39,615 nt of DNA from Escherichia phage PSK1. Under the pieces are notes generated by a model. It was not told the origin of the DNA. It ran no database searches and saw only the letters and a program-made list of their open reading frames with translations. The position numbers were made by a program, and so were the translations under genes. Below are positions 38,583 through 39,376 of the stretch, one piece after another; the first letter of the stretch is position 1; every line of letters begins with the position of its first letter. The stretch lies in the sequence record PP541512.1. The stretch is one strand, 5' to 3'.

Positions 38583-39149
38583 ATGGCTCAATACATTCCA
38601 CTGAATGCTAACGATGACTTAGATGCCATCAACGATATGTTAGCAGCTATCGGTGAACCAGCAGTCCTACAGCTTGACGAAGGTAACGCTGACGTCTCGA
38701 ACGCTCAACGTATCCTGCATCGTGTCAATCGTCAGGTCCAAGCTAAAGGCTGGAACTTTAACATCAACGAAGCTGCTGTCCTGACACCTGATGTCCAAGA
38801 CAATAGGATTCGATTCCTGCCGTCTTACCTTCGGGTCATGACTGCTGGTGCTACCAGTTACTACAGCAACATGGGGGGCTATCTCTATGACCTGTCCACT
38901 CAGTCCACGACCTTCACTGGACCAATTACAGTCGAACTGGTGGAGATGAAACCGTTCGCTGAGATGCCTGTAGTATTCCGTGACTACATCGTTACCAAGG
39001 CTAGCCGTGAGTTCAACGCTAAGTTCTTCGGTAGCCCAGAGTCTGAACTGTACCTTCGTGAGCAGGAAGCAGAACTCTACCAGCAGGTGATGGAGTACGA
39101 GATGGACACTGGTCGCTACAACATGATGTCCGACATCGGGAGGGACTAA
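38583..39149 (+). CDS. Tail tubular protein A (gp11)
   Basis: 188 aa; INDMLAAIGEP, NA.RIL.RVNRQ.Q.KGW.FNI.E match T7 gp11 as remembered. Confidence 0.9.
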   Translation: MAQYIPLNANDDLDAINDMLAAIGEPAVLQLDEGNADVSNAQRILHRVNRQVQAKGWNFNINEAAVLTPDVQDNRIRFLPSYLRVMTAGATSYYSNMGGYLYDLSTQSTTFTGPITVELVEMKPFAEMPVVFRDYIVTKASREFNAKFFGSPESELYLREQEAELYQQVMEYEMDTGRYNMMSDIGRD

Positions 39150-39376
39150 TGGCTAGTCACAACCTGAAGATTCACCGCCAGCACTTTGGTCCGGTACAAC
39201 TGGGTCTAAAGACAGCAGAGCTGAGACTTAACGACCGGGACTTTAAGGTTGGCGACTGGCTTATCCTGAATGAGTGGGACAACGGGTATACTGGACAACA
39301 GGCAGCACGTAAGGTTGTCCATGTGGCTGACGTTGGTGACATCGCTGAAGGATACGTCCTAATCAGTATGATTTAA
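39149..39376 (+). CDS. Small ASCH/PUA-like protein (DUF3850-type) inserted between gp11 and gp12
   Basis: 75 aa; LKIHRQHFGPVQLGLKTAELRLNDRDFKVGDWLILNEW fits the remembered ASCH/DUF3850 pattern. Family assignment is from memory, not a search. Confidence 0.5.
   Translation: MASHNLKIHRQHFGPVQLGLKTAELRLNDRDFKVGDWLILNEWDNGYTGQQAARKVVHVADVGDIAEGYVLISMI

Follow-up and report, generated by a model that had tools for sequence, protein, structure and literature searches.

A DUF3850 gene of the ASCH superfamily between tail genes 11 and 12 of Escherichia phage PSK1: an optional accessory gene of Kayfunavirus-like phages

The gene 11/12 region of phage PSK1

The window analysed in this study is the 39,615-nucleotide (nt) sequence record PP541512.1 of Escherichia phage PSK1, and the element of interest is a 75-amino-acid (aa) open reading frame (ORF) which separates genes 11 and 12, coding for the tail tubular proteins A (adaptor) and B (nozzle), respectively (Table 1). 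Its product belongs to the DUF3850 family within the ASCH superfamily, and the gene is an already annotated, ordinary, optional accessory gene. The phage records closest to positions 38583–39615 are those of Kayfunavirus (K1F-like Autographiviridae), with 95–99% identity (megablast; 212 phage records matched). Bases 1–127 of the window are identical to bases 39489–39615 (127 nt, repeat family D2). The window thus represents a circularly permuted Kayfunavirus genome of 39,488 bp, assembled as a circle and opened within gene 12. Rejoined gene 12 consists of 39386–39488 followed by 1–2255 (past the repeat: 128–2255) and codes for 785 aa, as does gene 12 of K1F.

Table 1. Features of the gene 11/12 region and its transcription signals (positions in the window)
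Feature	Position	Strand	Remarks
Phage RNA polymerase promoter-like site, the last before the gene 11–DUF3850–gene 12 unit	36984..37007	+	phi10 position, before gene 10
Tphi-like intrinsic terminator between genes 10 and 11	38426..38472	+	17-bp stem, then T run; strong stem-loop with T run spans 38426–38463
Gene 11 (tail tubular protein A/adaptor), 188 aa	38583..39149	+	Pfam Tube, 6.1e-46; PHROG 446
Shine-Dalgarno sequence GGGAGGG of the DUF3850 gene	39138..39144	+	final Gly (GGG) and Arg (AGG) codons of gene 11 and first G of its Asp codon
TAATG stop/start overlap of gene 11 and DUF3850 gene	39147..39151	+	ATG at 39149–39151, one base shared with TAA
DUF3850/ASCH-superfamily gene, 75 aa	39149..39376	+	ATG start, TAA stop at 39374–39376; sole such plus-strand ORF in the ORF listing
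Shine-Dalgarno sequence AGGAGGG and ATG (39386) of gene 12	39376..39388	+	directly past the DUF3850 stop codon
Gene 12 (tail tubular protein B/nozzle), 5' part	39386..39615	+	PHROG 457, 8e-30
Next phage RNA polymerase promoter-like site, past gene 12	2278–2301		

Start signals and transcriptional context of the DUF3850 gene

The original prediction, which had been made from the sequence alone, placed the ORF between two tail tubular genes that are adjacent in T7 and let its start overlap the gene 11 stop; both observations hold. Its ATG and the preceding TAA share one base, the flanking genes match Pfam Tube and PHROG 457, and in T7 genes 11 and 12 are separated by a gap of 23 nt only, whereas phage PSK1 has the DUF3850 gene between them. 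The local reading across the end of gene 11 is GGG AGG GAC TAATG GCT, in which the Shine-Dalgarno motif GGGAGG is spaced 5 nt from the overlapping ATG. The arginine codons AGG and AGA are the rarest in this phage, accounting for 4.2% and 7.6% of its Arg codons, respectively. Translation of the DUF3850 gene seems to be coupled to that of gene 11 via the TAATG overlap and the embedded Shine-Dalgarno sequence. Gene 12 starts ten bases past the DUF3850 stop codon, and its Shine-Dalgarno–ATG segment is a near-repeat of the upstream segment GGAGGGaCTAATG.

A phage RNA polymerase promoter-like motif, CTAAACTATCACTATAGG, occurs in 11 copies in the window (repeat family D1). The 11 copies, recorded as a 20–24-nt motif CTAAACTATCACTATAGGnA, begin at 2278, 9947, 15700, 19106, 22427, 24159, 25126, 27247, 33175, 35996 and 36984, and are presumably the promoters of the phage RNA polymerase of this Kayfunavirus. 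A scan of the window for repeated motifs detected no further copy between 36984 and 2278. Given this arrangement of promoters and terminator, gene 11, the DUF3850 gene and gene 12 constitute a unit that has no promoter of its own and follows a Tphi-like terminator, like genes 11 and 12 of T7, and the DUF3850 gene is probably expressed late. No sigma-70-like promoter or terminator was found to flank the DUF3850 ORF; the ORF alone has been inserted, so it does not have the promoter and terminator of its own that define a moron. Its GC content of 0.496, compared to 0.502 for the genome, gave no signal of foreign composition.

Protein family, predicted fold and conserved residues

The suggested resemblance to ASCH/DUF3850 domains was borne out by profile searches. 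The protein matches the Pfam family DUF3850 (PF12961) with 69.4 bits (cut-off 22.9; 3e-19), residues 4–73 covering positions 2–76 of the 77-position model. The match to ASCH (PF04266, PUA-like clan) is marginal (24.8 bits, cut-off 21.2; 3.6e-5); this profile is also matched by 105 of 150 DUF3850-family relatives. PHROG 986, labelled “RNA-binding protein”, matches at 4.6e-34, while a search of NCBIfam gave no match. Since Pfam reports DUF3850 and ASCH alone, without any nuclease domain, the gene does not qualify as a homing endonuclease or similar mobile gene. The sole match among PDB sequences is 3IUW (1.2e-10, and 3.3e-19 with a profile), a structural-genomics entry for an 83-aa DUF3850 protein of Enterococcus faecalis V583 named “activating signal cointegrator”, for which no function has been determined. 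The latter is bacterial or prophage-borne and encoded outside any tail operon, in contrast to the gene of phage PSK1.

An AlphaFold2 model built with 30 homologues (predicted local distance difference test score of 92.4) is a five-stranded barrel in which the first strand is followed by a helix; the predicted strands comprise residues 3–9, 23–27, 37–43, 47–61 and 69–74, and the helix residues 10–17. The predicted fold matches 3IUW, the only solved DUF3850 member, as well as YqfB and other ASCH, EVE and YTH barrels of the PUA-like type. According to the model, the protein is a minimal stand-alone beta-barrel of the ASCH/PUA-like superfamily. The PUA-like fold assigned in the original prediction is therefore retained, but its description as typically nucleic-acid binding is dated, because the ASCH proteins characterised to date are N4-acetylcytidine (ac4C) amidohydrolases.

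The ASCH octapeptide GxKxxExR is present as G19-L-K21-T-A-E24-L-R26, i.e., in its “GKER” form. When the protein is aligned to YqfB with hhalign, G19-K21-E24-R26 is in register with G19-K21-T24-R26 of YqfB, and FKVGD with FKTGD. A comparison of 58 diverse DUF3850 domains identified H4, K21, E24, D29, R30 and E42 as invariant, and L6, K7, R26, N28, G35, D36, L40 and G49 as conserved in at least 90% of the domains. All of the invariant residues, as well as K7, R26, N28, G35, D36 and G49, are present in the protein of phage PSK1; invariance was also measured on 150 family representatives. The octapeptide Lys and Glu, reported to be essential in ASCH tRNA ac4C deacetylases, are thus not only present, as K21 and E24, but invariant in the family.

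Carriers, non-carriers and the dispensability of the gene

Junctions between gp11 and gp12 genes were compared for 24 Kayfunavirus-like IMG/VR loci, three Logan loci, and K1F. This survey of relatives, which the original prediction had proposed, revealed carrier, T7-type and K1F-type junctions. In carriers (15 loci and the window), gene 11 ends with GGG AG[GA] GAC TAATG, followed by the small ORF, its TAA, a Shine-Dalgarno sequence and the gene 12 ATG. T7-type non-carriers (10 loci) read GGT CGA GAC TAA TAGGAGGTGATATG, the latter segment leading into gene 12; all ten have GGT/AGC CGA at the end of gene 11. The third type, represented by L003 and K1F, has GGG AG[GA] GAC TAATG as in carriers, but the ATG now is the start of gene 12. 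All 17 loci in which a downstream start overlaps the gene 11 stop have the GGG AG[GA] sequence, and none of the 10 loci lacking such an overlap has it; since the loci are phylogenetically related, these counts are not a statistic on independent samples. Even so, such a pattern is what selection for a translationally coupled start would be expected to leave.

The K1F-type junction has retained the Shine-Dalgarno sequence and the gene 12 allele of carriers. The most plausible reading is that the DUF3850 gene was lost secondarily, by deletion between the near-identical Shine-Dalgarno–ATG segments GGAGGGaCTAATG and GGAGGGcCTATG. At the K1F-type sites (3564–3570 in L003, and 2440 in the K1F locus, L027), gene 12 starts within a TAATG overlap with gene 11 and takes over the embedded GGGAG[GA] Shine-Dalgarno sequence; the tail genes of this type thus are themselves translationally coupled, unlike those of T7.

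Proteins at least 80% identical to the DUF3850 protein are encoded in 154 phage records (tblastn), always after tail tubular protein A, and the gene is publicly labelled “hypothetical protein”, “RNA-binding protein” or “DUF3850 domain-containing protein”. Carriers include, for example, EcoDS1, vB_EcoP_F, LM33_P1, CLB_P1, and Bas105 of the BASEL collection. A gp11 of at least 80% identity is present in 217 records. About 25 of the top 60 junction matches are of the K1F type, including all K1F records and ZG49, and in about 25 non-carrier records and K1F, gp11 and gp12 are 92–100% identical across the junction. Among the 24 IMG/VR loci, the gene is present in 13 and absent from 11. Taken together, these counts indicate that approximately a quarter to a half of the close relatives do not have the gene, in keeping with the view that it is accessory. 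The original prediction had named absence from otherwise near-identical genomes as a finding that would speak against it; such absence does occur, as in K1F, but what it shows is that the gene can be dispensed with; it does not call the reality of the gene into question.

A position between gp11 and gp12 might suggest that the protein is co-produced with them and acts on them, as a tail assembly chaperone or minor virion protein. Its occurrence does not follow that of the cognate tail proteins. In K1F, gene 11 ends where gene 12 begins, and SH3 and SH4, the only K1F-like phages for which virion proteome data were found, are non-carriers with normal, complete virion proteomes. Since close relatives including K1F do without the gene, it is dispensable for making tails, and since K1F, SH3 and SH4 build complete virions, a structural or chaperone role is highly improbable. 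Apart from 3IUW, no PDB chain matches the protein, including those of the Kayfunavirus-like tail structure 9VVR (whose source phage is of unestablished carrier status). Moreover, matches of the predicted model to ASCH folds rank far above hub matches, and in the 54 other viral loci surveyed (see below) the DUF3850 family is never located beside virion genes.

The junction as an insertion site, and selection on the DUF3850 gene

In a survey of 80 T7-like IMG/VR loci, 58 have a gap of 0–24 nt between genes 11 and 12. The DUF3850 gene is present in 13 loci, all with a gp11 at least 80% identical to that of phage PSK1. Nine of 56 more distant loci (gp11 about 54% identical) have 330–463 nt inserted at the junction. 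Five of these inserts (L095, L111, L128, L129 and L134, at about 3040–3510 in each) contain an intact ORF, two of which are confirmed members of Endonuclease_7 (PF02945, up to 4.5e-26), and the other three share the motif. The remaining four (L103, L112, L123 and L135, at about 3040–3510) contain no intact ORF of comparable length and look like decayed, apparently frameshifted endonuclease VII remnants. An endonuclease is annotated at the same junction in a Hafnia phage record as well. Among T7-like phages, the junction of genes 11 and 12 recurs as a site of insertion. The endonuclease VII genes, which are likewise optional and found both intact and decayed, use the same slot as the DUF3850 gene. 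However, they code for nucleases with plausible self-mobility, whereas the DUF3850 gene codes for no nuclease or mobility domain.

These inserts raise the question of whether the DUF3850 gene could be a functionless hitch-hiker, which entered a permissive junction and is slowly decaying while being kept through its linkage to essential neighbours. In line with this, the junction also collects selfish endonuclease VII genes, intact or as remnants, in other genera, and the DUF3850 gene has been lost repeatedly (K1F type). Furthermore, some alleles show signs of relaxation. A 45%-identical allele of the CR44b type in the same slot (L023, a 39,207-bp IMG/VR contig, 3567–3791) has lost the N-D-R motif (GIKTCDLRPSIPE) and scores 26.6 bits, just above the Pfam threshold; its best structural match in BFVD is a 74-aa protein of Citrobacter phage CR44b. 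This allele may be either decaying or functionally shifted. Single genomes have R30L (L008, gene at 3567–3791) and D31G (L006, 589–813) at otherwise invariant positions.

On the other hand, 13 distinct alleles are all intact, of the same length and with the same stop codon, and their ratio of nonsynonymous to synonymous substitution rates (dN/dS) is 0.135, compared to 0.026 for gp11. The gene is under purifying selection, yet it evolves much faster than gp11. Alleles which are only 73% and 66% identical occupy the same slot, with the same overlap, beside gp11 sequences of 95% and 93% identity, and the motif is kept down to the 66% level; the gene is old in the Kayfunavirus-like clade. Gene 11 keeps rare codons that provide a dedicated Shine-Dalgarno sequence, and the DUF3850 gene is retained in the approximately 154 records mentioned above. 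Against this evidence, the hitch-hiker explanation is very unlikely. A chance reading frame is contradicted by the Pfam match over nearly the full DUF3850 model, the intactness of the 13 alleles and their dN/dS value; the gene very probably is a genuine, translated, dispensable accessory gene.

DUF3850 genes in other phages

An exhaustive search at E≤1e-3 retrieved 4,786 representatives of 50%-identity clusters of the DUF3850 family, many of them with C-terminal extensions of unknown nature. Outside Kayfunavirus, the nearest homologues (about 60–66% identity) belong to lambdoid phages and to siphophages of enterobacteria. Neighbouring genes were examined in 54 dereplicated viral loci other than those of Kayfunavirus. 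The 150 genes located within two positions of a DUF3850 gene include, as recurrent neighbours, replication initiators (7 and 5), D12 and C5 DNA methylases (5 and 3), NinB (4), Ead/Ea22 (4), SSB (3) and exonucleases; DnaB, lambda P, RdgC and dCTP deaminase occur once each. Not a single virion protein gene is among these 150. The original prediction's remark that the gene is an odd passenger in a structural operon is thus well founded, and the location in a tail operon is peculiar to Kayfunavirus-like phages. Fusion partners of the 150 family representatives were uninformative, comprising only DUF551 (9), one MazG-like dATP/dGTP pyrophosphohydrolase, DUF7415, and PHROGs of unknown function.

The DUF3850 genes of P2/Wphi (orf91) and other phages (PHROGs 986 and 1812) resemble the gene of phage PSK1 in being stand-alone, enterobacterial, accessory and without known phenotype, at 43–66% identity. 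However, they belong to early or replication modules (past gene A of P2, in the nin region, or near methylases), whereas the PSK1 gene lies, apparently coupled, inside the late tail unit. In Wphi (L030, 3986–4267), the DUF3850 protein, annotated as similar to P2 orf91, is encoded directly after replication gene A. An Erwinia lambdoid phage (L029, 4001–4234) has its DUF3850 gene in the nin region beside NinX, after O and a helicase gene. In K1ind2, the gene is located between the lysis genes and terminase.

Several observations bear on a role in counter-defence or host takeover, directed against a strain-specific host system, for instance by reversing the acetylation of bases or aminoacyl-tRNA by GNAT toxins; such a role would be compatible with either an enzymatic or a binding mechanism. 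The gene is patchily distributed among near-identical phages, and an ASCH gene in Jerseyvirus is likewise present in some members and absent in others. Fast evolution relative to the neighbouring genes (66–73% versus 93–95% identity) is combined with an invariant core site. ASCH genes are also found alongside toxin-like operons of the (PIN)-GNAT-EVE type. In phages, few domains are joined to ParB-CTPase folds as frequently as DUF3850; CTP binding has been reported for one of these fusion proteins, and ParB-DUF3850 fusions are enriched in prophages, for which an anti-defence role was suggested by the authors. However, a PADLOC search gave no significant match (best E value 0.01), and no GNAT acetyltransferase gene occurs among the 150 neighbours in the 54 loci, which were inspected for an ASCH-GNAT pairing. 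Moreover, the last-entering, late-transcribed part of the genome of a T7-like phage would provide poor timing for an early function. We therefore consider a counter-defence role rather unlikely.

Possible function of the DUF3850 protein

The following scenario would account for the observations. The protein would be made late, at roughly the levels of gp11 and gp12, through terminator read-through and coupling to gp11, and would act in the cytoplasm rather than in the virion. The invariant polar residues H4, K7, K21, E24, R26, N28-D29-R30, D36 and E42, including those of the GxKxxExR octapeptide, would form a ligand pocket, which may bind a cytosine-type base, either free or in RNA or DNA. By analogy with GKER-type ASCH enzymes, the protein might hydrolyse an N4-acyl (acetyl) group, for example that of ac4C in host tRNA or nucleosides. 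This explanation as a whole, an accessory gene whose product has a cytosine-base pocket, is favoured with a probability of about 0.55; the specific amidohydrolase mechanism is more doubtful and is put forward tentatively.

YqfB hydrolyses N4-acetylcytidine (PMC6972931). In a 2026 preprint, 19 ASCH proteins of the GKTR and GKER types were reported to remove ac4C from tRNA, the Lys and Glu residues of the octapeptide being essential; YqfB was described as not binding nucleic acid (10.64898/2026.02.27.708502). The DUF3850 protein is mildly acidic (isoelectric point (pI) of 6.4, charge −1), as are 70–83% of the stand-alone family members (median pI of about 6.3), and in this respect it resembles YqfB more than a typical RNA-binding protein. 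The Lys/Glu dyad, the dense cluster of invariant polar residues, and the acidic composition, unlike that of RNA-binding proteins, argue for a small-ligand or base-directed site which binds, and possibly deacylates, its ligand, with cytosine derivatives being favoured.

Alternatively, the protein could be a non-catalytic reader, the barrel of which binds RNA, single-stranded DNA or a modified base, as in EVE, YTH and SRA proteins, and thereby tunes replication, transcription or translation. The recurrent association of DUF3850 with replication, DNA methylase and ParB-CTPase genes or domains fits a reader of DNA or of modified bases at least as well as it fits an enzyme. The PHROG label “RNA-binding protein”, which implies a reader, goes back to a prediction of 2006, not to an experiment. 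In addition, the net charge is negative, the sequence has no basic surface signature, and the ten invariant or near-invariant residues are mostly of a charged, catalytic type and include the dyad that is essential in other ASCH proteins. A reader function is possible, but less probable than the scenario of a cytosine-base pocket outlined above.

For that preferred scenario, and its enzymatic version in particular, several points weigh on the other side. None of the 19 ASCH proteins assayed in the preprint was a phage or DUF3850 protein (10.64898/2026.02.27.708502), and no experimental function is on record for any DUF3850 protein. E. coli YqfB and other ac4C amidohydrolases (PDB 9KYF; TthASCH, EOLA1, TRIP4-ASCH) share 19% identity with the DUF3850 protein, and the profile alignment to YqfB spans residues 10–47 only, with a probability of 22%. 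Of the YqfB catalytic set (Lys21, Thr24, Glu74, Arg26), K21 and R26 align, while position 24 is Glu, and the 75-residue protein has nothing corresponding to the C-terminal helical insert that carries the general acid E74 of YqfB. Because Thr24 and E74 are unmatched, the protein should not be filed as YqfB-type. Conversely, DUF3850 has H4 and E42 as additional invariant residues, and an invariant N28-D29-R30 motif of its own, absent from the characterised ASCH enzymes. There is no evident benefit of ac4C removal late in the lytic cycle, and expression and coupling of the gene are inferred from sequence. The missing E74 element, the N-D-R signature, and the replication, methylase and ParB company are the reasons for the low confidence in the amidohydrolase mechanism. 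Still more speculative, and unlikely as a complete account, is a late-acting minimal phage ASCH deacylase that would erase ac4C from host tRNA-Met or released nucleosides, or undo acetylation carried out by a GNAT toxin or a defence system of the host, giving carriers a host-dependent advantage.

For phage PSK1 itself little is at stake, as the gene is recognisable, deposited in about 150 phage genomes and unneeded for tail building. DUF3850 as a whole, however, is a large phage-associated family, including P2 orf91 and ParB-CTPase fusions, with a solved structure and no known function, and the Kayfunaviruses offer a natural experiment with near-isogenic carriers, clean deletions (K1F type) and the apparently decayed CR44b allele in tractable T7-like E. 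coli phages. Because ASCH domains have recently been reported as ac4C amidohydrolases, the idea of a phage-encoded eraser of RNA modifications is now directly testable. If the deacylase reading were true, it would provide the first function for a family which comprises several thousand protein clusters from phages and prophages. The gene itself was already known; what the present analysis adds is the putative coupling signal inside gene 11, the distinction of carrier, ancestral and deletion junctions, the finding that the junction serves as an insertion site, and an enzymatic hypothesis amenable to testing.

Additional observations in the window

A search of the entire window against Rfam gave no match. 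Two antisense ORFs, at 39172–39342 and 39206–39322, were set aside as probable by-products, since the plus-strand gene has a family match and is under purifying selection. Compared with the translated segments 38583–39146 and 39386–39615, chains T and S of PDB entry 9VVR are identical at 186 of 188 adaptor residues and at 74 of 77 residues of the nozzle N-terminus, and the adaptor and nozzle of 9VVR are 97–99% identical to those of the window; no exact match to this nozzle N-terminus was found among the INPHARED records. A 54-aa ORF (38259–38423) matching PHROG 7473 (unknown function, 1.8e-26) is located between gene 10 and the Tphi-like terminator, ending 3 nt before the stem.
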